A DNA stretch of 33,405 nucleotides from Nemertoderma westbladi (GCA_032718475.1 JAUCBJ010006072.1:1-33405); one strand, 5' to 3'; shown: positions 1 through 15,072, numbered from the stretch's first letter. Made by a program: numbers and translations. Notes: generated from the sequence alone by a model not told the origin.

Positions 1-2147
1 GTTTCGAGCGCCTCGTGCGCGTTTTGGCCGATGAGTATTTGCACTCCAGGATAATCTGTCTGGAATCGAGGTATCTTAAGATATTGGATGCTCTCATCTT
101 CGTCCCAATTATAAAGGTCTGCTTGAGTAGTAGCAAAGTTCTTTATAGCCACCATTTTTACTGACCTTATACCTTGTGTTCCTAACTTATCCTGGGGGGT
201 GGACAACACACCTACATAGTAATCTGCCGTTAGGGTAGCTTTCCAAACCTGCATAATTCCTGACATATTCAATTTAGTCCGGAACTTGGGTTGTCCAGCA
301 AAGATATCTTCGGCTAGTTCTTGATCGATGAATGTTCCTGTGCTGCCGGAGTCAAGGAGGGCGTTCACTATGTAGCTTTTGTTAAGACCGTGAACTCTTA
401 CTTGAACTACAGGAAATTCTCTGATTCCTACATTGGAAGCTGGAGCTTTCCAAGATGGTTGTTTGGCGAAAGTAGTTGGGGGAAACTCATCGTTGATGTC
501 CTTTTCGTAAGTAAGTGCTCGATACACTGCGGTATTGATTAGATAACAGGATTCGTTGGCGTCGGAGAATTCGTCAGTATAGAATCCTTCCATCTCAGAT
601 TCTTGATCAGTGTCGTTTACATCACTGAATTGGACATGTAGTTCGGGCTCACTTACCTGACTCAGTTTGTCTCGTTCGAACTCACTGTGTAACAAGATGT
701 GATGTTTCGCGCCACACTTTGCACACTTTGCGTCGGAGTAACAGGTTCGCCGTTGGTGTCCGGATCTGAGGCAATTATAGCATAACCGCTTATTCCACAG
801 GACTGTACGTCTGTCTACAAGGGATTTCTTTAGAAATTCAGCACACGCACTCAAACGGTGGGGCCCGTCGCACAGCGCACATTTTGGTTTGATGTTACTC
901 ACCTTAACTTGGTTAACGTTATGCACTCTCGTTCTTTCTTCGGGCTTTCTTCCGTGAATTCTCTTAGGAGACGTAGGAGGAGTTGTTGTTACCTGTTCTC
1001 TCCTGTCACTGGTTCGAGACTTGTATTTACTTACGTCTTTATAGGTCTTGTTGTCATAGTAAGATTTTGCTGTGTCTTTCCCGCTGTCCTCTTCTTGAGA
1101 AGCTTGGCTTTCGCCGTCGTCAGTATAACACACTGGTATTATCCTTCTCCTAGAAACGGGTTTCTCACTTACCTTATTTTCCGATGTTTTCTCTCTGGAC
1201 TGCCTTATGAGTTGTAATTTTACTTCACTATCTAAGAAGGACATGAGATCAGCCATGGTAGGACTTCGTCGTTGTTGTTCATTCATGTACAACACTTTCT
1301 TGTCCCAGCGTGTACATACTCCACCCTTTGGTAAAGTAGAGACTACGGCTCCAATAACCATGGAACTCTGATATTCATGCGACTTACCTAACCAGTCCAG
1401 TTGTCTACAGATCTCTTGAATCTCATCGGAAAACTCTATAATCCCGCTACTAAGGAAGTGTTGGGGGGCTACTAATTTTGCATACAAATACTTAGCTATG
1501 TTATCCTTGTTACCATACCTGATGTTTAATGTATCCCAAACTTGTCTTAATCCATCTGGATGTCCAATAAACTTTAACGCCATTAACTTGGGAGGTCCTT
1601 CCAAGCACTTGATGAGGAATCTAAGTTTCTCTCCGTTAGATAGTACAGAGTTCTGTATGCTATCTTTGTAATATTCGTTGAAAGGTAACCATTTCATCTC
1701 ATCTCCATTGAATTTGACGATCTCTCCCACTTTGACCGCTTGGCGGGCTTCTGTTCTAGCCATCTGACGCGTAAAGCTTTCTTGGGCCATCGTGTTATTT
1801 AATATCGAATTATCGGTATATAAAGTTCTCGGATCATTATCAGGTCTATAGGGAATATCATTAATAACAGGTCTATAATCACCCTTAATAGGGTTTGCTA
1901 TAGGAGTTTCAACTTCACTAGCAGTATAGATGCGTGTAGGCTCCACACCTTGCGCATGTATTACTTCAGACCTAACAGGTTGACACAATGTTACAGGGGG
2001 TATTGGTATGCCGTTTTGTATATTGACTAATTTGTCGCGTTCTAGCGCGATACTTTGCTGCACTTCTTGCAACTCTGCTCTACCTTCCCTCACTGTTCCC
2101 TTAAGTTGGTGGACAGTCTCCTGCATCTGTCCTAGCAGGAGATTCAT
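1..2147 (-). mobile_element. BEL/Pao LTR retrotransposon gag-protease polyprotein segment (continues beyond window start)
   Basis: Hand translation in one frame from ATG 2147 gives a DUF1759-type gag core (KFNGDEMKWLPFNEYYKDSIHNSVLSNGEKLRFLIKCLEG...VWDTLNIRYG, from ~1720). It then gives three BEL-type zinc knuckles (CALCDGPHRLSAC, CYNCLRSGHQRRTC, CKCGAKHHILLH, ~690-880), the protease motif VNALLDSGSTGTFID (~325-368) and ILIGQN near the edge. It is absent from the ORF track, consistent with no stop before the edge. Confidence 0.92.
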
Positions 2148-3747
2148 CCCCCACCGTCCGCTCTTCCACCCACTCAACCGCCGAAGCGGGAGTCGCCAAC
2201 ATAGTAGCGGGCTGACGCGGGACGACGGGAGACAAATTTTTGATTTCTCTCTCTGCTATCTGGACAGGGATATTCTCTTGGACTGTTCCACCGGGTACAG
2301 GCAGTGTAGTACTATGCAAAGGGAATTTAGAGTTAAGCTCTGGAAGTACAGGGGTCTCTAACACAGAAGTGACTTTGGGAACGACAGGCCTAATTATTTC
2401 AGGCTCATCAACTATTGTAGGGAGTCTTGTGACCTGAATAATTTGTTCTGTGGGTTCTATACTACTCAAGTCTGTGCTAGCTAGCTGTCTTCTAACAGCT
2501 GGGGGCAAATCAGGCAATTTGTGACGGTGAGATGTTTTTCTACGCCTGCTTAGACGAGATCTATTTCCTCCGCCTTCAGGATCGGTGGTCTCGCCTTCCT
2601 CCGAGGATGTGTATCCCTGGCGCTTGGGAGTAGATTTTCTCATCATCTGCATTTGATTAGCAGTAAACTGTTTATTTATACTGTCTTGCGTCTCTTGCAG
2701 ATTTTCCAACTCCAGTTGGATAGTCTCCTCAGAAGCTCTCCTTTCTGCTTCCGCCACTGCTGCTTTTCTTTCTGCTTCTGCTTCTGCCGCCTTTCTTTCG
2801 GCTTCTGCTTCTGCCGCCTTTCTTTCGGCTTCTGCTTCTGCCGCCTTTCTTTCGGCTTCTGCTTCTGCCGACTTTCTTTCGGCTTCTGCTTCTGCCGACT
2901 TTCTTTCGGCTTCTGCTTCTGCCGCCTTTCTTTCGGCTTCTGCTTCTGCCGCCGCTGCTGCTGCCACCTTTCTTTTCTCTATCATCCGTTCTTTCTTTAC
3001 TTGTTCTTCTTGGACTCTAACGAGGCGGAGTTTTTCATCACATTCAGCTTGGTTTGCAGCTAACATTTCGGCATCGATTGAGTCCAACACAAGCTTGGTT
3101 CCTTCACTATTAGGGGAAAGTCCAGACAGCCGTCTCCTCAACTCTTCGTCTCCTAGGAATCGCTGATAGTCGGACAAATAAATGTCGATAGCGTCTCTAG
3201 TTCGCGGCTTCTCTGCTGCTGTTAATTCGCTTTCCACTTCGCTTTCCACCTCGCTTTCCACTTCGCTTTCCACCTCACTTTCCACTTCGCTTTCCACCTC
3301 ACTTTCCACTTCGCTTTCCACCTCACTTTCCACTTGAGAAGAAGTGGCGTCGGTTGATTCTTCATAGGTTGGCCGCTCATCATAAACCGTATCCGCCATC
3401 TTCGCTCCGCGTTCTGGCGTCCGCTCAACAGTATCCGAACTACTGGAGCTATCGGGCCGCTGAGAACCAGGTTCTTGGCTAGGAGGTTGCTGCTGTTTTA
3501 TAGCTTCTTCTTGATCCCGCTTGACTTGGGCCCGAGTGCCTATGGCAGACCAACGGCGCTTCACTAACTTCGCAAATTGCGAAATCTTTTCTACCAACCT
3601 AGGTTCTGACACAACCACTGCAGGGGTTGCCCTTCTTACAGTATGAGGGGTTTCAGACCTCGGTCTGGGATTCTCTACACTTTGATCTGAGAAACAGGCT
3701 GTTGTTTCTAGGAGACTATCTGACAGAGTTTGCCTTGTGTCAGCCAT
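2101..3747 (-). CDS. N-terminal low-complexity/coiled-coil ORF of the BEL/Pao element (548 aa), out of frame with downstream gag
   Basis: ORF track; acidic ESEV and AEAEAERK repeats; overlaps the gag-pro frame by 47 nt; same strand and directly upstream of the gag core. Confidence 0.75.
   Translation of the reverse strand: MADTRQTLSDSLLETTACFSDQSVENPRPRSETPHTVRRATPAVVVSEPRLVEKISQFAKLVKRRWSAIGTRAQVKRDQEEAIKQQQPPSQEPGSQRPDSSSSSDTVERTPERGAKMADTVYDERPTYEESTDATSSQVESEVESEVESEVESEVESEVESEVESEVESEVESELTAAEKPRTRDAIDIYLSDYQRFLGDEELRRRLSGLSPNSEGTKLVLDSIDAEMLAANQAECDEKLRLVRVQEEQVKKERMIEKRKVAAAAAAEAEAERKAAEAEAERKSAEAEAERKSAEAEAERKAAEAEAERKAAEAEAERKAAEAEAERKAAVAEAERRASEETIQLELENLQETQDSINKQFTANQMQMMRKSTPKRQGYTSSEEGETTDPEGGGNRSRLSRRRKTSHRHKLPDLPPAVRRQLASTDLSSIEPTEQIIQVTRLPTIVDEPEIIRPVVPKVTSVLETPVLPELNSKFPLHSTTLPVPGGTVQENIPVQIAEREIKNLSPVVPRQPATMLATPASAVEWVEERTVGDESPARTDAGDCPPT
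2736..2951 (-). repeat. Coding 27-bp tandem repeat, (AAEAEAERK) x ~8
   Basis: Unit ttctttcggcttctgcttctgccgcct repeated; visible in translation. Confidence 0.95.
3226..3333 (-). repeat. Coding 12-bp tandem repeat, (ESEV) x 9
   Basis: Unit ttcgctttccac/ctcactttccac; visible in translation. Confidence 0.95.
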
Positions 3748-9072: not shown

Positions 9073-9093
9073 TTATAAGATGGCACAACATCT
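9073..9093 (-). other. C-terminal CaaX box (R-C-C-A-I-L-stop)
   Basis: CAIL fits the CaaL geranylgeranyltransferase-I consensus; the adjacent Cys is a candidate palmitoylation site; basic RKASR precedes it. Confidence 0.8.
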
Positions 9094-12000
9094 ACTTGCT
9101 TTCCGAAATGCGATTCCTTCAGCTTGAGCTTCGCCATAGCCAAATATTGCTTCATTCTGAAGATCTATTTGATCGGATAGTTGCATCATACTCTTTTTGT
9201 CAAAACATCCTAGTTCATCAGTTTCTAGATGCATTTTAATGTTTTGAACGAGCTGAGTAACTCTCACATCATTGTCTAAGTTATTATGTTTATTATAGTT
9301 ACCATGGCTTCCATGAGTTGTAAATGAGTTACAAAACTCCATAAAGACGGTACCGGAGAATGGTATAGCCAATTCTCCTTTAGGGGGCCAACCAGCATTA
9401 CTGCAACAGGTCTTCTGACTCTCAAATAATAATGGCATTATTTTCTTTTTTCTTTCAAAAGCCAATTGGCCTTCAGTAACACAATATCTCGATGTTAGAT
9501 ATCCTTTACTAATACAAGGTATGAACACTTTACAATTTGAGATACCTTCATCGATTCGTCCAAACAGCTTATCTCCACCTCCCATCTGCCCAATGTCCAT
9601 CCAACAAGTAATACCTTGTTTCTCCAACTGTTCTTTCAGCTGTTTTACATTTTCTTGAATCTTCCAATTATAACTTAAAAATATCTCCTTGGTACTATCT
9701 CTAGTTTTGATTTTCCTCTCCTGTGGTTCAGATGGTATTGGACGTTCCTGCGGTACCCATTGCCTAAATTTATGAGTACTCACACGGTTATGTCCACATA
9801 ACATAACCTTCTTTTCTAATGATTCTTCCATGTCTAAGAAATGAATACATTCCATTTCAGGGCAGTGTTCTACTTTGTGGAATTCACACTCGGTTTCACA
9901 AGGACATGCAACAGCTGTCATGTATGATATATTTTTAACCCATAGATGCTTGAAATCATTTAGAGTTGACTCTATAAAGTGTCTTACAGCAGCAAAAGCT
10001 TCAGGTTTTGGAGTCTTTCCTTTATTTACAGATATTTCTCCATCATCGCTTATGACACTAACTCGAACTATACTAACCTTGATTCTAGCCAGTCGAATAG
10101 GTGCCATTTCAAGAATACAATCATGTTCATCATCTATATAAAACCGAACTACTCTGTGATATAGTTTTGGTTCAGAGCTGCCTTGATCTTGGGACCATTT
10201 AACAGCCCTCACTGACAATCTATTAAATAAACCATCCGGGAGGAATCCATCAAATATTATGTGGAAAATAATATCACTTTCGGAGTGAGGAATAAAAATC
10301 TTTTTGTTTGGAACTTTCATCCTGGCTGGAATGTAAAATGATCTGTATGGTAAAATACTTTTTTGTTTCGGTGGCAATTTCTCACACATTAGATCAAACT
10401 TTTCCATCAATGCAATTAAAGTTGATTTTTGTGAGATTATGGAGTTCCACATATGATCCAGTAATGGTTCATCTAGAATACCATTATCGTCTAGATTCTC
10501 CCAATATGGTCTCAGTGCTACCCACTCATTGTCGATATCAGCTATCGTTATGATCTTTTTAAACACATCTATCAGCCACTGTGGATTGAGTATTACAGTA
10601 TTTCTCAAACTGTCATCAGTTGCACCCAAACCTCCATAATAAATTATGGTTCCCAAATCATGGTAAAAATTCAGCATTGTCAAGAATGTAGTATCTGATG
10701 TAATTCCAACTTTGTTTGCAATATCACGGACTTTATCAATATTCGCAAAATTTTGATAATGTATTTTCTGTATGGCATTTTCAAATTTTAACCAAAGCAG
10801 GGGCATTAACTCTCCCATGTACTGCTGCTGTTTGGATATATCCTGAATATGTTGTCTAAGTTTGATAACTTCTTGGTCTGATCCATTTTCTATGTGATTC
10901 TCCACTGCATAACACTCATTCACAAGATGCATTGCATATGACTTCCTCGCAATCATTTCTTTAATTAATTTGAACTTCTGTCTTGCCATTTTATTTTGCT
11001 CCTCCGGGCTAGAATGCAAACTAGCTCTATGAGTTCCTACAATGAATATTGGAGGTGTTTCAACATATTTATCCTTACCAATACATTTCCGTTGTTTTCC
11101 AGTCTGCTTTGAAGTGAAAGCATAAATTGATTTCATCCAAAAGTCGATAAAATCAATATTTCGCATCTCATGATGCACAAATTGACTATCTGGATCATCA
11201 TCAGTGCCACAAGGTCCTCTTCGTTGAAGTGTTTGAGCTGGGGCTTCTAGGTCATCCGTTAGATTGAACACTATCACATACACTGCCCTGTATGTTAGGA
11301 AAACCTGGTGTGTTGCATAATACACTGATTGCCCAGCAAAGTCCCAAATACTTAGTGTAATTTTATCACTTTCTTCAGCCATTTCTGTATAAATATCGCT
11401 TTGTTGTTCCTGATCTAACATCTCAATCAGTAACTCTTTCACCCTGTCAGGTATATCAACACGACTGTCATATATATCTTCCTCTTTCACCTGACTTTCG
11501 ACCAATAATCTACTAATTTGTTGTGTAGATACTGGCCCATCATCTATTGCAATTGAAGATTCGCTTTCGCTTGATTGGATGTGTTCTTTTTCATGATTAT
11601 CTCCATACTGTATATCTTGATTTTCATCATTTTGTAAGCTACTTTTTGCATCTTCATTTATACTTGCTGAGGCAGTTTTCGAAACTCTACTTACTTTACT
11701 TAAAAATTCTTGTTTCTTTTTAATAATTTCCTTTGCAACTAAATATGCCAATCTTCTATTATACTCATCCTCTAGATTTGTTGTTTTATTATCTGCCTCC
11801 TTGGTGTTGTTTGATTGCCATGGCTGCCAGTCACTGACATCTATTTCGCAGTTATCATTTACAGTTATTCCATCTGTTGAAATCTCATTTGGATTAAACT
11901 TTTCACCCATTAGAGAATTCTTCAAACTTGTCTTGCCAGCCCTATCCTGTCCGACAAGCATTAGACGTGTTCTAAATATTGGTTTAGTTCCATTATTCAA

Positions 12001-15000
12001 TGCCAGTTTAAAAGCATTGATAGCATCTGGACCCCTTGCTAAGATTTCGGCCGGCAACTCATCTTTTACATTCGATTTGAGTCGCCCTTCTGCAGCTAAT
12101 AATGATTCAGTCATGTTTTTAAACATTTCTTGTATATTTATGTTACTTTTTGCACTTGTTTCCAAGTATTTCATGTTAAACTTTTTTGCCATTTTCATTC
12201 CAGAGTTTGTAGAAATTTTACGGGTATTTTTGAGATCGCATTTATTTGCAATCAGAAATAATTTTACATGCGGATTTATATGTGGTTGTATGTCATCAAA
12301 CCATTTAGTGACACTGTCAAATGTTTCTCCTTGTGTGACATCATACACAATAAATATACCATTAGCACTTCTATAGTAGGATGCTGACAAAGCTCTGTAC
12401 CTCTCAGCCCCAGCAGTATCCCATATCTGAAGTTTGGTAGTACATCCATTTATATCTAAGACTTTAGCCTTTAATTCTATACCAATTGTTGATTTATATT
12501 CATCCACAAATTCGTCAGTAATAAACTGATGCAATAAACTACTCTTTCCACTCTCTGAATTTCCAACAAGAACAAGTTTTAAAATTGTATTGATAACTTC
12601 TACAGGATAAAATACTTCGACAGATTTCCCATCGTCATGATCTCTTGATAACCATCTATTAACCTCGAAAGTAACATTAGTATTCCTATAAATGTCTCGT
12701 ATGTTTACGGCTTGTAAGTACCACGATTTAGCTTTTATGCCGTTGTATTCATTTGTTACTATTACATTAAGTATTTCCTCTCCTAGATCGATTGATTGTA
12801 TGTTGAATGTCTGCTTGCTTCCTTTACTGAATGTCTGTTGTAGTTGAAATCGCCCTGACATTGCCTTGCTTCCCATTATTTCAAACCAAACAGTCGAATC
12901 TGTTCCAGCATTTTGTATACTCCCTGTTTCAACCTGGATTGCATATGGAATTGTATGCTCTGCTGCTTCTAGAATACTTTCAATTTTGTCGGCAATCCCT
13001 TTGACGCCATTTTCCCAGCTGTCGATTAGTTTATCAGTTAACGTCAGTGTTGCTGATTGCCTGCCAAGAAGGAGTTCACCTATCCAATCTGGCTGCTTAT
13101 AGGCATCAATTGGTATCGATTTATCCTGTACAGAGTGCTGAATCATGGCATGCAGAGCAATAACATAATTACCTGTTTGTAAAGCAAATTTTGTAAATAT
13201 TTCACACCAATTTATGAGGGTTGATTTTATTTGATTATTTGCGAGGTTTATTCCTTTTCCATATGATTTATTGTTATTTGGTGTGATCATAACTATTACA
13301 GGTTGGCAGATTTTCCCCACTTTGTGACCCATCCATTTCATCATCCAGTCGCCCATCAATTTATATTCCTCACTTTTTTTATCAATATTAACATCAGATG
13401 CCAGAATTGCTATGGATATTCCATATTTCTCTAGACTTTTTCCTAATTTGTTGACAATTGCAGCATCTTTTGTGCTGCATATTACATTGACACTCTTGTT
13501 CATTTTGTTTAGAGTAACTTCTTTATCTTTGGTTGGATTTGTCCTTCTGATATTTTCAACTATTTGTTTACTATCTGTCGTTTTTTGTAATAATGATAAA
13601 ATGGATGATTTTTTTGGCTCGTCTGCAGTTAAAGATCCAGCAAACTCTGGGAACTGATGTCCTAATTCCACCTCATTGAATTCTTCATTTAAACTCTCAT
13701 TTTGACTTTCAGCTTCATATTCGGCTGTTTTCTCAACACTAAAATCACTAATATTGTCATCGAAGCTTGCCCCTCTAAAATACCTAGGCATTCTTTCAAT
13801 TTGATCTCCAAACTTTTTTCTTTTATTAATTTTAGTTTCATTGTTTAGTTTTCTGAAATCTTCTTTTGAATGATTGTGTCTAGTTTGTAGTCCCACACCA
13901 ATGTTTCTGATTCCTTTACGGTCAGTATCAATGTTTCTATCTATACTGTCGATGCTTACATCACTAACATTATCATCAAAGCTTCCTCGTCTGTAGTATT
14001 GCCTGGCCTTAGCTGCTTCATGGTCATTTGATTCTTTCTTCCTATATGCCTTAATTTCGTCAATAAATGGCTGTCTCTCCTTTCGGATGGTTTCACGTTT
14101 TACCCTTTCTTCGTTTCTGTTTCTTTCTGTTCTTAGGATTTCTGCCTGCCTTTCCCTTTCCTCTATAAATCTATAATCACTGACAGGCGGACGATACGTC
14201 ACTTCTTGTTTACCTTTATTTCTTCTATGAGCTTTAGATCCGTCACCTTCTGTTTCTATTGTGTTTATTTTATCTTTAAATAAACTCTCACTCTGGTTGA
14301 TTTCAATATCTTCATTGTCCATTCCTTCATGTGTCCTTTTATGGTCCATATTGTATTGCTTTGAAATTGATGCTTGAGTGGCAACGTTCTCACTGATTTC
14401 ACTTTTATTTCCCCCAGCCATTCCTTTTCCGTTAGCTTGTTTGATTGGATTTAGTAGCTGAGGGAATGGGTCAGGTGTCTCATCTATCTTTGAATGTCCG
14501 ACCCACTCGCCATTTTCCACTTCCCATTCTATTGGTCCTGATGAAAATGAATATGACGTTTTAGACTGTTGATGTTTTGGTTGTGATGCTGAATCTGCAG
14601 CTGAAGATTCAGTTTGGTATGATCCAACATGGGCCGAATAAGTTTGGTGTGAACCAACATGGGCTGGTTGAGCTTGCTGAGAACCAACATGGGCTGATTG
14701 AGTTTGGTGTGAACCAACATGGGCTGGTTGAGTTTGCTGTGAACCAACATGGGCTGGTTGAGCTTGCTGAGAACCAACATGGGCTGATTGAGTTTGGTGT
14801 GAACCAACATGGGCTGGTTGAGTTTGCTGTGAACCAACATGGGCTGATTGAGTTTGGTGTGAACCAACATGGGCTGGTTGAGTTTGCTGTGAACCAACAT
14901 AGGCTGATTGAGTTTGCTGTGAACCAACATGGGCTGATTGAGTTTGCTGTGAACCAACATGGGCTGATTGAGTTTGCTGGGCATAGGGAGCATTCTCAGA

Positions 15001-15072
15001 AACAATTTCAAAGGACTTTTTTGATTTTTTAGATTTTGTCTTGCCCTTTTTGAGTTGTTCTGTTAATCCCAT
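9073..15072 (-). CDS. Single-exon 1999-aa Roco-family protein: TIR-like / PLAT / Rab / Roc / COR / TIR / CaaX
   Basis: Uninterrupted 6-kb ORF with an in-frame TAA two codons upstream of the ATG. Two sets of small-GTPase motifs, COR signatures (MGELMPLLWLKFE, LNFYHDLGTIIYY, LNPQWLIDVFKKII, LPDGLFNRL), a TIR, and C-terminal RCCAIL. A possible AATAAA lies at 8823-8828 on the minus strand. Confidence 0.95.
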   Translation of the reverse strand: MGLTEQLKKGKTKSKKSKKSFEIVSENAPYAQQTQSAHVGSQQTQSAHVGSQQTQSAYVGSQQTQPAHVGSHQTQSAHVGSQQTQPAHVGSHQTQSAHVGSQQAQPAHVGSQQTQPAHVGSHQTQSAHVGSQQAQPAHVGSHQTYSAHVGSYQTESSAADSASQPKHQQSKTSYSFSSGPIEWEVENGEWVGHSKIDETPDPFPQLLNPIKQANGKGMAGGNKSEISENVATQASISKQYNMDHKRTHEGMDNEDIEINQSESLFKDKINTIETEGDGSKAHRRNKGKQEVTYRPPVSDYRFIEERERQAEILRTERNRNEERVKRETIRKERQPFIDEIKAYRKKESNDHEAAKARQYYRRGSFDDNVSDVSIDSIDRNIDTDRKGIRNIGVGLQTRHNHSKEDFRKLNNETKINKRKKFGDQIERMPRYFRGASFDDNISDFSVEKTAEYEAESQNESLNEEFNEVELGHQFPEFAGSLTADEPKKSSILSLLQKTTDSKQIVENIRRTNPTKDKEVTLNKMNKSVNVICSTKDAAIVNKLGKSLEKYGISIAILASDVNIDKKSEEYKLMGDWMMKWMGHKVGKICQPVIVMITPNNNKSYGKGINLANNQIKSTLINWCEIFTKFALQTGNYVIALHAMIQHSVQDKSIPIDAYKQPDWIGELLLGRQSATLTLTDKLIDSWENGVKGIADKIESILEAAEHTIPYAIQVETGSIQNAGTDSTVWFEIMGSKAMSGRFQLQQTFSKGSKQTFNIQSIDLGEEILNVIVTNEYNGIKAKSWYLQAVNIRDIYRNTNVTFEVNRWLSRDHDDGKSVEVFYPVEVINTILKLVLVGNSESGKSSLLHQFITDEFVDEYKSTIGIELKAKVLDINGCTTKLQIWDTAGAERYRALSASYYRSANGIFIVYDVTQGETFDSVTKWFDDIQPHINPHVKLFLIANKCDLKNTRKISTNSGMKMAKKFNMKYLETSAKSNINIQEMFKNMTESLLAAEGRLKSNVKDELPAEILARGPDAINAFKLALNNGTKPIFRTRLMLVGQDRAGKTSLKNSLMGEKFNPNEISTDGITVNDNCEIDVSDWQPWQSNNTKEADNKTTNLEDEYNRRLAYLVAKEIIKKKQEFLSKVSRVSKTASASINEDAKSSLQNDENQDIQYGDNHEKEHIQSSESESSIAIDDGPVSTQQISRLLVESQVKEEDIYDSRVDIPDRVKELLIEMLDQEQQSDIYTEMAEESDKITLSIWDFAGQSVYYATHQVFLTYRAVYVIVFNLTDDLEAPAQTLQRRGPCGTDDDPDSQFVHHEMRNIDFIDFWMKSIYAFTSKQTGKQRKCIGKDKYVETPPIFIVGTHRASLHSSPEEQNKMARQKFKLIKEMIARKSYAMHLVNECYAVENHIENGSDQEVIKLRQHIQDISKQQQYMGELMPLLWLKFENAIQKIHYQNFANIDKVRDIANKVGITSDTTFLTMLNFYHDLGTIIYYGGLGATDDSLRNTVILNPQWLIDVFKKIITIADIDNEWVALRPYWENLDDNGILDEPLLDHMWNSIISQKSTLIALMEKFDLMCEKLPPKQKSILPYRSFYIPARMKVPNKKIFIPHSESDIIFHIIFDGFLPDGLFNRLSVRAVKWSQDQGSSEPKLYHRVVRFYIDDEHDCILEMAPIRLARIKVSIVRVSVISDDGEISVNKGKTPKPEAFAAVRHFIESTLNDFKHLWVKNISYMTAVACPCETECEFHKVEHCPEMECIHFLDMEESLEKKVMLCGHNRVSTHKFRQWVPQERPIPSEPQERKIKTRDSTKEIFLSYNWKIQENVKQLKEQLEKQGITCWMDIGQMGGGDKLFGRIDEGISNCKVFIPCISKGYLTSRYCVTEGQLAFERKKKIMPLLFESQKTCCSNAGWPPKGELAIPFSGTVFMEFCNSFTTHGSHGNYNKHNNLDNDVRVTQLVQNIKMHLETDELGCFDKKSMMQLSDQIDLQNEAIFGYGEAQAEGIAFRKASRCCAIL
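9230..9687 (-). other. C-terminal TIR domain (TIR_2-like), from aa ~1796
   Basis: EIFLSYNW...VKQLKEQLEKQGITCWMDIGQMGGGDKLFGRIDEGISNCKVFIPCISKGYLTSRYCVTEGQLAFERKKKIMPL; Glu1867 at 9472-9474. End boundary approximate. Confidence 0.92.
9900..10818 (-). other. COR (C-terminal of Roc) domain
   Basis: MGELMPLLWLKFE start, FYHDLGTIIY, VILNPQWLIDVF, FYIPARM, FLPDGLFNRL; directly follows Roc. Confidence 0.88.
10830..11975 (-). other. Roc GTPase domain with a long insertion between switch I and G3
   Basis: RLMLVGQDRAGKTSL (P-loop 11926-11952), ISTDGI, IWDFAGQSVYYATHQVFLT (W at 11344-11346), IFIVGTHRA, YAVEN. Confidence 0.92.
12097..12582 (-). other. Embedded Rab-family GTPase domain (Rab1/Rab8-like motifs), aa ~831-992
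   Basis: GNSESGKS, YKSTIGIEL (RabF1-like), KLQIW (RabF2) DTAGAE, RYRALS (RabF3-like), YYRSA (RabF4-like), IVYDVT (RabF5), NKCD, ETSAK. Confidence 0.95.
12604..12945 (-). other. PLAT/LH2 domain, aa ~710-823
   Basis: YAIQVETGSIQNAGTDSTVWFEIMG...FSKGSKQTF...DLGE...WYLQAVNIRD...FEVNRWLSRDHDDG matches the PLAT pattern. Confidence 0.92.
12970..13494 (-). other. Degenerate TIR-like domain, aa ~527-701
   Basis: SVNVICSTKDAAIVNKLGKSLEKYGISIAI aligns by eye to TIR betaA-alphaA-betaB; CQPVIVMITPNNNKS to betaC; NWCEIFTKFALQTGNYVIAL to the WCxxE helix and betaD; PDWIGELLLGR and WENGVKGIADKI to the C-terminal part. Confidence 0.65.
14621..14980 (-). repeat. Coding 30-bp minisatellite x 12 (QQTQSAHVGS-type decapeptide)
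   Basis: gaaccaacatgggctgattgagtttgctgt-type units at exact 30-bp spacing, unit starts 14621 to 14951. Confidence 0.97.

Follow-up and report, generated by a model that had tools for sequence, protein, structure and literature searches.

The 33,405-nt stretch of Nemertoderma westbladi DNA analysed here (GCA_032718475.1 JAUCBJ010006072.1:1-33405), referred to throughout as the window, carries on its minus strand one uninterrupted open reading frame (ORF) of 1999 codons plus stop (9073..15072). The protein read from it, P0001, is the subject of this report: a divergent ROCO protein with a C-terminal TIR domain that is likely, to judge from its sequence, to cleave nicotinamide adenine dinucleotide (NAD+). 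The ORF runs for about 6 kb without introns in frame, at about 36% GC, in DNA that looks like animal DNA (about 31-51% GC per kb, long ORFs few). From the N-terminus, P0001 comprises a low-complexity region, a domain without recognised relatives (the orphan domain), PLAT, a Rab8/10-like GTPase, ROC, COR-A/B, TIR_2 and a terminal CCAIL; Pfam matches above the cut-offs were obtained for PLAT, Ras, Roc, COR-A and TIR_2. An initial annotation of this DNA had singled out 9230-13494, which corresponds to amino acids (aa) 527 to about 1948 of P0001, as encoding paired TIRs, the C-terminal one with the catalytic-position Glu and a hidden N-terminal one without it. The features to be discussed are the following, P0007 being a homologue from the brittle star Amphiura filiformis.

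9223..9684, minus strand: C-terminal TIR_2, aa 1797 to ~1950 (Pfam TIR_2, PDB matches, PADLOC TIR models, family alignment)
9472..9474, minus strand: codon of Glu1867, the catalytic-position Glu of TIR NADases, by alignment
9076..9090, minus strand: C-terminal CCAIL, a CaaX box with final Leu and an extra Cys upstream (sequence motif)
9790..9906, minus strand: Cys/His-rich stretch, aa 1723-1761, at the end of COR (alignment with P0007)
9862..10803, minus strand: COR-A, aa 1424-1575, and COR-B, aa 1601-1737 (Pfam; collinearity with P0007)
10873..11967, minus strand: ROC GTPase, aa ~1036-1400 (collinear with the P0007 ROC, 44% identity; G1/G3 motifs)
12100..12579, minus strand: Rab-like small GTPase, aa 832-991 (Pfam Ras, 2.4e-63)
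12622..12945, minus strand: PLAT/LH2, aa 710-817 (Pfam PF01477, 8e-12, 46.3 bits against a cut-off of 23)
12970..13494, minus strand: orphan domain, aa 527-701, the proposed hidden TIR-like domain, containing NWCEIF at aa 621-626
13195..13203, minus strand: codons of E624-I625-F626, F626 being the WCxxE Glu position in the register of the initial annotation
14606..14979, minus strand: 30-nt tandem repeat, 12.5 copies (Tandem Repeats Finder, 90% matches, no indels)

The C-terminal TIR is well supported. The letters on which the initial annotation relied, SRYCVTE with Glu1867, are exact (aa 1861-1867), and the domain around them matches Pfam TIR_2 (PF13676) over aa 1797-1886 at 8.1e-22, with 78.4 bits against a cut-off of 28, as well as the TIR models of PADLOC. 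A phmmer search of PDB sequences with this domain gave 10 matches at E<=1, among them the CRISPR-associated Cat1 (1.2e-6), the bacterial TIRs 7uxr and 7uwg, Acinetobacter AbTIR (0.0036), flax L6 (0.012) and PdTIR. In these sequence alignments E1867 is paired with the Glu in Cat1 (CWDE), 7uxr (TEYE) and L6 (CLME); a 2-residue gap displaces it in the 7uwg alignment, and the AbTIR (8g83) alignment ends before the motif. For the family as a whole, an alignment was made of the query and 53 of 67 homologue domain rows, the other 14 having been left out for E>=1e-5 or fewer than 90 residues covered. S1861, C1864 and E1867 are each invariant in all 54 rows, and the BB-loop GQMGGGD (aa 1828-1834) is nearly so, while the position four before the Glu, which is Trp in the classical WCxxE, is Y1863 in P0001 and variable in the family. 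Moreover, a family profile built from 35 full-length members and searched against PDB returned 81 matches, and within the 60 best, which were inspected, its TIR part found 7uwg/7uxr (3e-6), Cat1, AbTIR, PdTIR and SARM1 (6.6e-5 to 1e-3).

Two 2026 preprints describe the Glu as required for TIR catalysis (10.64898/2026.04.20.719644; 10.64898/2026.09.21.753143). The first adds that animal TIRs outside the Toll-like receptors (TLRs) mostly keep this residue, so Glu1867 is an ordinary residue and no special feature of P0001, and that many of these TIRs, from echinoderm, lancelet, mollusc and other sources, produce cyclic ADP-ribose (cADPR) in a Glu-dependent manner (10.64898/2026.04.20.719644). In the legend to Figure 3 of the same preprint, Roc and COR are named as domains of proteins from which the TIRs were taken, proteins that may or may not belong to the family considered here. 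The C-terminal TIR of P0001 is thus likely, on alignment evidence, to be catalytic and NAD+-cleaving.

The domain directly in front of this TIR is a GTPase core of the ROCO type. ROC has recognisable G1 (GQDRAGKT, aa 1041-1048) and G3 (DFAGQ, aa 1244-1248) motifs, separated by a low-complexity insert of ~160 aa, and it stands directly before COR, which is the ROCO arrangement: COR-A is matched by Pfam at 4.3e-18 (66 bits against a cut-off of 35.3), and COR-B, at 19 bits, is under its cut-off of 27, yet collinear with P0007. The ROC-COR part of the family profile matches LRRK2 and the Roco protein of Chlorobium tepidum. At the end of COR-B is a Cys/His-rich stretch, CPCETECEFH...CGH, with Cys and His positions in common with Amphiura P0007; it may be a metal-binding element of the ROC-COR-TIR ROCO family. 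Upstream of ROC, the Rab-like domain is well preserved, with G1 (GNSESGKS), G4 (NKCD), G5 (ETSAK) and the switch regions conserved, and its best PDB matches are Sec4, Rab10, Rab8A and Rab1, at E about 1e-44. The departure is in switch II, which reads WDTAGAE (aa 884-890, 12403-12423) against WDTAGQE in Sec4 and the Rabs. Because Ala889 thereby replaces the catalytic Gln, the domain is predicted to hydrolyse GTP poorly. A Rab-like domain is likewise the first domain of two coral ROC-COR proteins, P0074 from Montipora and P0078 from Stylophora (4e-14 and 2.4e-14, respectively, against that of P0001), and a small GTPase before ROC-COR, as read from these sequences, recurs in other animals.

The same core places P0001 in a family. 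A search with aa 1000-1999 gave 79 proteins at E<=0.001 among 7265 candidates, the best of them, at 41-44% identity, from the brittle star Amphiura, sea urchins, acorn worms (Saccoglossus), a crinoid and lancelets, followed by annelids, molluscs and cnidarians; the set used for comparison consists of 83 other retrieved proteins. These relatives have the architecture Neuralized-ROC-COR-A/B-Death-TIR_2. By BLASTP, aa 1007-1779 of P0001 align to 164-947 of P0007 (44% over 805 aligned positions) and aa 1797-1913 to 1061-1170 (44% over 117 positions), the two blocks being collinear. Pfam gives no match in P0001 to Neuralized (PF07177), and the P0007 alignment begins at residue 164, past its Neuralized domain (NHR); there is likewise no Pfam match to the Death domain (PF00531), and the alignment skips the P0007 Death domain at 984-1050. 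The COR alignment ends at aa 1779 and the TIR starts at aa 1797, which leaves only 17 residues in between, and about 1000 other residues occupy the front of P0001 where the relatives have Neuralized. In 43 of the 83 retrieved proteins the C-terminus is C-x-x-L, typically KCxVCxIL; these are 42 ROC-COR-TIR members and P0079. CaaX boxes with Leu as their last residue are classically geranylgeranylated, and the same modification is predicted for the CCAIL tail of P0001. As judged by these comparisons, the ROC-COR-TIR-CaaL core is a divergent member of a widespread invertebrate Neuralized-ROC-COR-Death-TIR family, and what is new in P0001 is the absence of Neuralized and Death and the presence in front of the orphan domain, PLAT and the Rab8/10-like GTPase. 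Such an orphan-PLAT-Rab-like front end was found in none of the 83 retrieved proteins. One relative, P0049 (Amphiura filiformis, 2078 aa), has the order Death-TIR_2-Macro-ROC-COR; its TIR shares a ROCO chain with Macro, a domain that binds ADP-ribose, a pairing that fits an NAD+-derived product.

From these observations we favour, with moderate confidence, a reading of P0001 as a divergent ROCO protein with a predicted NAD+-cleaving C-terminal TIR that is activated as the GTPase core gathers TIRs at the membrane. PLAT and a geranylgeranylated CaaL tail would anchor the protein to a membrane, and a nucleotide-dependent change or dimerisation of ROC-COR, as in other ROCO proteins, would control TIR-TIR contact. 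TIR NADases need such contact for their composite active site. The assembled TIR would then turn over NAD+, the probable products being ADP-ribose (ADPR) or compounds of the cADPR type. Without its Gln, the Rab-like domain would be slow or non-hydrolysing and serve as a GTP-bound, built-in regulatory module, and the orphan domain is possibly a degenerate, non-catalytic TIR-like module. The suggestion in the initial annotation of an NAD+-cleaving TIR gated by the GTPases therefore stands in part: the enzymatic assignment is well founded as a prediction, given TIR_2, the invariant Glu, the NADase-type nearest structures and ROC-COR directly upstream, and since the TIR is directly behind the ROC-COR core, gating is a reasonable guess. 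Several considerations weigh against the scheme. GTPase gating, prenylation and membrane clustering are inferred steps for P0001; catalysis by P0001 or its direct family is predicted from sequence; the Glu is necessary, yet insufficient, for catalysis; and expression of the ORF, as an mRNA without introns, is presumed.

The orphan domain requires separate treatment. The letters NWCEIF reported there are exact (aa 621-626, with E624 at 13201-13203 and F626 at 13195-13197). The accompanying claim, that aa 527-701 follow the same fold pattern as a TIR, was not confirmed, as family searches, BLASTP, hhalign and a TIR hidden Markov model (HMM) all gave results at noise level. We nevertheless lean slightly to the view that aa 527-701 are possibly a strongly degenerate TIR-like alpha/beta domain. 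The competing view, that this is an unrelated or new lineage-specific alpha/beta domain, or a partly disordered region, with WC-x-x-F a chance occurrence, is a strong contender that in our estimate falls a little short of even chances.

The searches bearing against a TIR are these. Pfam and PADLOC have no family matching aa 527-701 at E<=10; NCBIfam gives a single 18.6-bit row (cut-off 370) and PHROGs two rows at E>0.1, all attributable to chance, and phmmer against PDB sequences gave 2 chance matches only. A HMMER search of 1.84 billion representative proteins returned none at E<=0.001. The domain is in none of the 83 retrieved proteins (phmmer --max, best E 1.7). A homologue search with aa 500-830 found 4 matches, all of them PLAT-repeat proteins; a search of the orphan region with longer lengths found none in 1505 candidates; and a scan of metagenome contigs gave 55 pattern matches, of which none was confirmed. 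Against the protein's own C-terminal TIR, BLASTP found as its best local match 15 aa (VNKLGKSLEKYGISI / VKQLKEQLEKQGITC) at E 0.36. With hhalign, the family TIR profile brings betaA, alphaA, betaB and betaC into order on the orphan domain at a probability of 0.9% and P=0.059, and in a comparison with seven family domain profiles and the Rab-like single sequence the TIR is best at P=0.063, followed by COR-A at 0.11 and the rest at 0.36-0.51. This ranking of the TIR as first of 8 was considered as support and rejected, since a false control pair, the C-terminal TIR against Neuralized, scored P=0.04, and the orphan-TIR values of 0.059-0.063 are thus within noise. The TIR HMM gives 1.7 bits on the orphan domain, a score reached by 112 of 2000 shuffles. 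WC-x-x-F, as a 5-residue pattern, has no statistical weight alone, and its register is ambiguous: hhalign, which pairs SYGKGINLA with S..C.rE..LA, puts G607 in the Glu column where the initial annotation had F626, and there are ~13 extra residues from the putative betaC to the WC, compared with the C-terminal TIR.

The one positive sign of a TIR comes from protein-language-model feature neighbours. In ESM-Atlas, the top neighbour of aa 520-705 is a "TIR domain-containing protein" at 0.91, with TIR_2, TIR and ThsB_TIR in the next ranks, and a shifted cut (aa 508-665) again has TIR_2/TIR at the top, at 0.90; for each cut, all ten best family-bearing matches are in one family or clan. Calibration, which covers whole proteins only, tempers this, in that scores of 0.9 occur in 4-10% of shuffled proteins and family coherence in a third of them, and the match shares only 136 of 256 features, the level of chance matches or distant relatives. 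On that calibration the result is a lead only; it is given some weight because it agrees with the independent guess of the initial annotation. AlphaFold2 on single sequences gave, for aa 515-832, a mean pLDDT (predicted local distance difference test) of 33.8. The genuine PLAT was likewise below 50 in that run, so the method and not the sequence is limiting, and the model says nothing on the fold. For aa 520-705 the pLDDT was 40.0 and the pTM (predicted template modelling score) 0.33, values that are uninformative and no evidence against the fold. The Foldseek check proposed along with the original claim, made on this low-confidence model, gave no PDB match at E<=0.001 (best E 0.5, TMq <=0.21). 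Both low-confidence runs place a strand at 552-557, a helix at 568-581, a strand at 593-598, a helix at 613-633 and a long terminal helix, a matching alternation that would fit an alpha/beta domain, at low confidence.

If TIR-like, the orphan domain would be non-catalytic, since the catalytic-position Glu is absent in both registers (F626 or G607), the registers themselves being uncertain. The paired-TIR reading is not established, and the inhibitory or scaffolding role that the initial annotation proposed for the N-terminal domain is a conjecture. Its most elaborate form, in which a Glu-less N-terminal pseudo-TIR restrains the C-terminal NADase and ROC-COR, by way of a GTP-locked Rab8/10-like domain, releases it at a PLAT/prenyl-anchored membrane, strikes us as quite improbable.

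A different objection concerns the C-terminal TIR itself, which might be a non-catalytic adaptor in the manner of MyD88 that brings in further TIR proteins through homotypic contacts, with the Glu in a structural or binding role. The parent family has Death then TIR, the order of the adaptor MyD88. The Death part of the family profile matches the death domains of MyD88, NRADD and p75NTR, and it is through the death domain that the MyD88 entries were matched. ROCO members in Aplysia have, in an in-silico study, been filed as MyD88-like or TLR-like (PMC9334734). These points, too, count against an enzymatic TIR. On the other side, P0001 itself is without a Death domain, and its TIR is nearest by sequence to NADase TIRs: among the best 60 of the 81 PDB matches of the family profile there is no TLR, IL-1R or MyD88 TIR, the sole receptor-type TIR being that of Hydra Toll-receptor-related 2 (1.5e-3). 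The invariance of the Glu in 54/54 family rows and the Glu-dependent cADPR synthesis by many non-TLR animal TIRs, as reported in the preprint cited above, also argue for catalysis. We therefore consider the adaptor explanation unlikely and retain the predicted NADase.

The integrity of the gene can be judged from DNA runs, four of which, from three studies, contain the ORF; no RNA run carrying it was found among the 6 runs listed. In runs X1 and X3, which sample two of the studies, a single contig spans 11726-14512 and differs at no more than one position; run X4, of the third study, equals 13233-13593 with zero differences, and the main contig over the orphan domain is identical across X1, X2 and X3. 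The same DNA runs contain second versions, 7-10% different, of 9598-9853, 10564-10866, 11350-11707 and 11590-12056, which by their sequence are an allele or a paralogue; for the first three segments the difference is about 9-10%. The indels observed are in frame, 9 nt at 9302 in X3 and 3 nt at 11805, the latter a deletion in the divergent X4 contig over 11590-12056. Among the differences listed for this contig, outside which there are 177 more, 13 of 26 are synonymous. Synonymous changes outnumber non-synonymous ones by 10 to 1 over the ROC core (aa 1017-1071); over the ROC insert (aa 1074-1118) the ratio is 3 to 12. The 10:1 bias in the core suggests purifying selection on the GTPase core.

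Other observations concern the N-terminal half and the surrounding DNA. The first ~520 aa of P0001 are low-complexity, and near the N-terminus the 30-nt repeat encodes QTQSAHVGS-type decapeptides. The repeat (14606-14979) is uncovered in one run, and in another run there are joints, with weak support, that leave out 363 and 505 nt at 13597-14421; the low-complexity region may vary in length. Within this disordered region the motif R-(R)-G-(A)-S-F-D-D-N-[VI]-S-D occurs twice, at 13969-13992 (aa 361-368) and 13753-13779 (aa 432-440), the first copy reading RRGSF, which resembles a basophilic-kinase site. A separate contig of 2394 nt, seen in X1, X2 and X3, resembles only 13255-13350 of the window, that is, 96 nt or 32 in-frame codons of the orphan domain (aa 575-606), at ~90% identity, with unlike sequence on either side and 3 of 6 synonymous among the differences listed; it may be an exon or paralogue fragment from elsewhere in the genome. 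Further off, a scan showed overlapping long ORFs at 3-2177 and 2101-3747, both on the minus strand. The former has a DUF1759 match at 4e-12 and weak aspartyl-protease and gag matches, and in sequence is like the gag of a BEL/Pao-type retrotransposon. Rfam and tRNA scans of the whole window gave no matches.

That the reading frame does not represent a functional gene in its present form, being a young retrocopy or chimera with its N-terminal half unexpressed alongside ROC-COR-TIR, or a decaying gene, is very improbable: it would suit the lack of introns in a frame whose related genes are annotated multi-domain genes, the gag-like ORF ~5 kb off, the low-complexity first 520 aa, the orphan N-domain and the mere 96 nt shared by the separate contig, but chance cannot keep a 6-kb frame free of stops at ~36% GC, PLAT and the Rab domain are both intact, only one of the G-motifs being altered, the sequence recurs with at most one difference over 11726-14512 in X1/X3 and none over 13233-13593 in X4, ROC core differences are biased to synonymous, and the indels keep the frame.

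In comparison with known systems, the closest counterparts of P0001 are the invertebrate Neuralized-ROC-COR-Death-TIR_2-CaaL proteins, such as P0007 and P0009, "neuralized PATS1" of Saccoglossus kowalevskii, with which it is collinear at 44% and has in common the long ROC insert, COR-A/B, the Cys/His-rich COR end, GQMGGGD, S-x-x-C-x-x-E and C-x-x-L. It differs from them in having neither Neuralized nor Death and in an N-terminus ~750 aa longer, made up of the repeats, the orphan domain, PLAT and the Rab-like domain. In the literature consulted, ROC-COR-TIR proteins were found only in in-silico catalogues of immune genes, and indirectly in the one preprint figure legend already mentioned: a cnidarian "NG3" has been described in silico as kinase-SH3-Roc-COR-Death-TIR (PMC5094078), and ROCO-bearing TLR-like and MyD88-like proteins have been described, also in silico, in Aplysia (PMC9334734). 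ROC-COR-TIR proteins are widespread in invertebrates and biochemically little studied.

With SARM1, AbTIR, Cat1 and flax L6, P0001 shares the TIR fold family, by sequence, and an aligned catalytic Glu. The relation is distant (E 1e-6 to 1e-3), P0001 has no Trp four before the Glu, and its activity, unlike theirs, is predicted only. The regulators also differ, being ARM-SAM in SARM1, CARF in Cat1 and ROC-COR in P0001. In animals, signalling by enzymatically active TIRs has to date been linked to SARM1 and, in 2026 preprints, to TEP1-type STAND proteins and some TLRs. If the TIR of P0001 is active and gated by its GTPases, it would offer a simple system for small-GTPase control of NAD+-derived signalling in animals; and if the pseudo-TIR/TIR pair were true, the switch of an animal TIR enzyme would be formed by small GTPases, not by a STAND ATPase or ARM-SAM.

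For the orphan domain the relevant precedent is TeTIR, described in one preprint as cryptic, insertion-bearing TIR-like domains in the animal NTPase proteins TEP1, NWD and NPHP3, the last of which is Glu-less (10.64898/2026.09.21.753143). According to the same preprint, the case for TeTIR rests on significant matches between profiles, on AlphaFold models and on a crystal structure, and TeTIR stands before NACHT (10.64898/2026.09.21.753143). Support of this kind is absent for aa 527-701, which stand before PLAT-Rab-ROC. Should the orphan domain be a degenerate TIR, P0001 would be an example of a pseudo-enzyme partner within one chain.

On the GTPase side, Rab8, Rab10, Sec4 and Rab1 resemble the Rab-like domain of P0001 at E ~1e-44, with G1, G4, G5 and the switch regions alike. 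Unlike the free Rabs, this domain is internal in a protein of 1999 aa, has Ala889 for Gln and has no C-terminal prenyl-Cys motif of its own. LRRK2, LRRK1 and the Chlorobium tepidum Roco protein have the ROC-COR tandem as P0001 does; the output domain is a kinase in LRRK2 and LRRK1 and a TIR in P0001. LRRK2 has Rab8 and Rab10 as partners and substrates on chains of their own, whereas P0001 carries a Rab8/10-like domain within itself. With an active, GTPase-gated TIR, P0001 would also offer a natural example of a Rab8/10-type domain fused to a ROC-COR core of the LRRK type.

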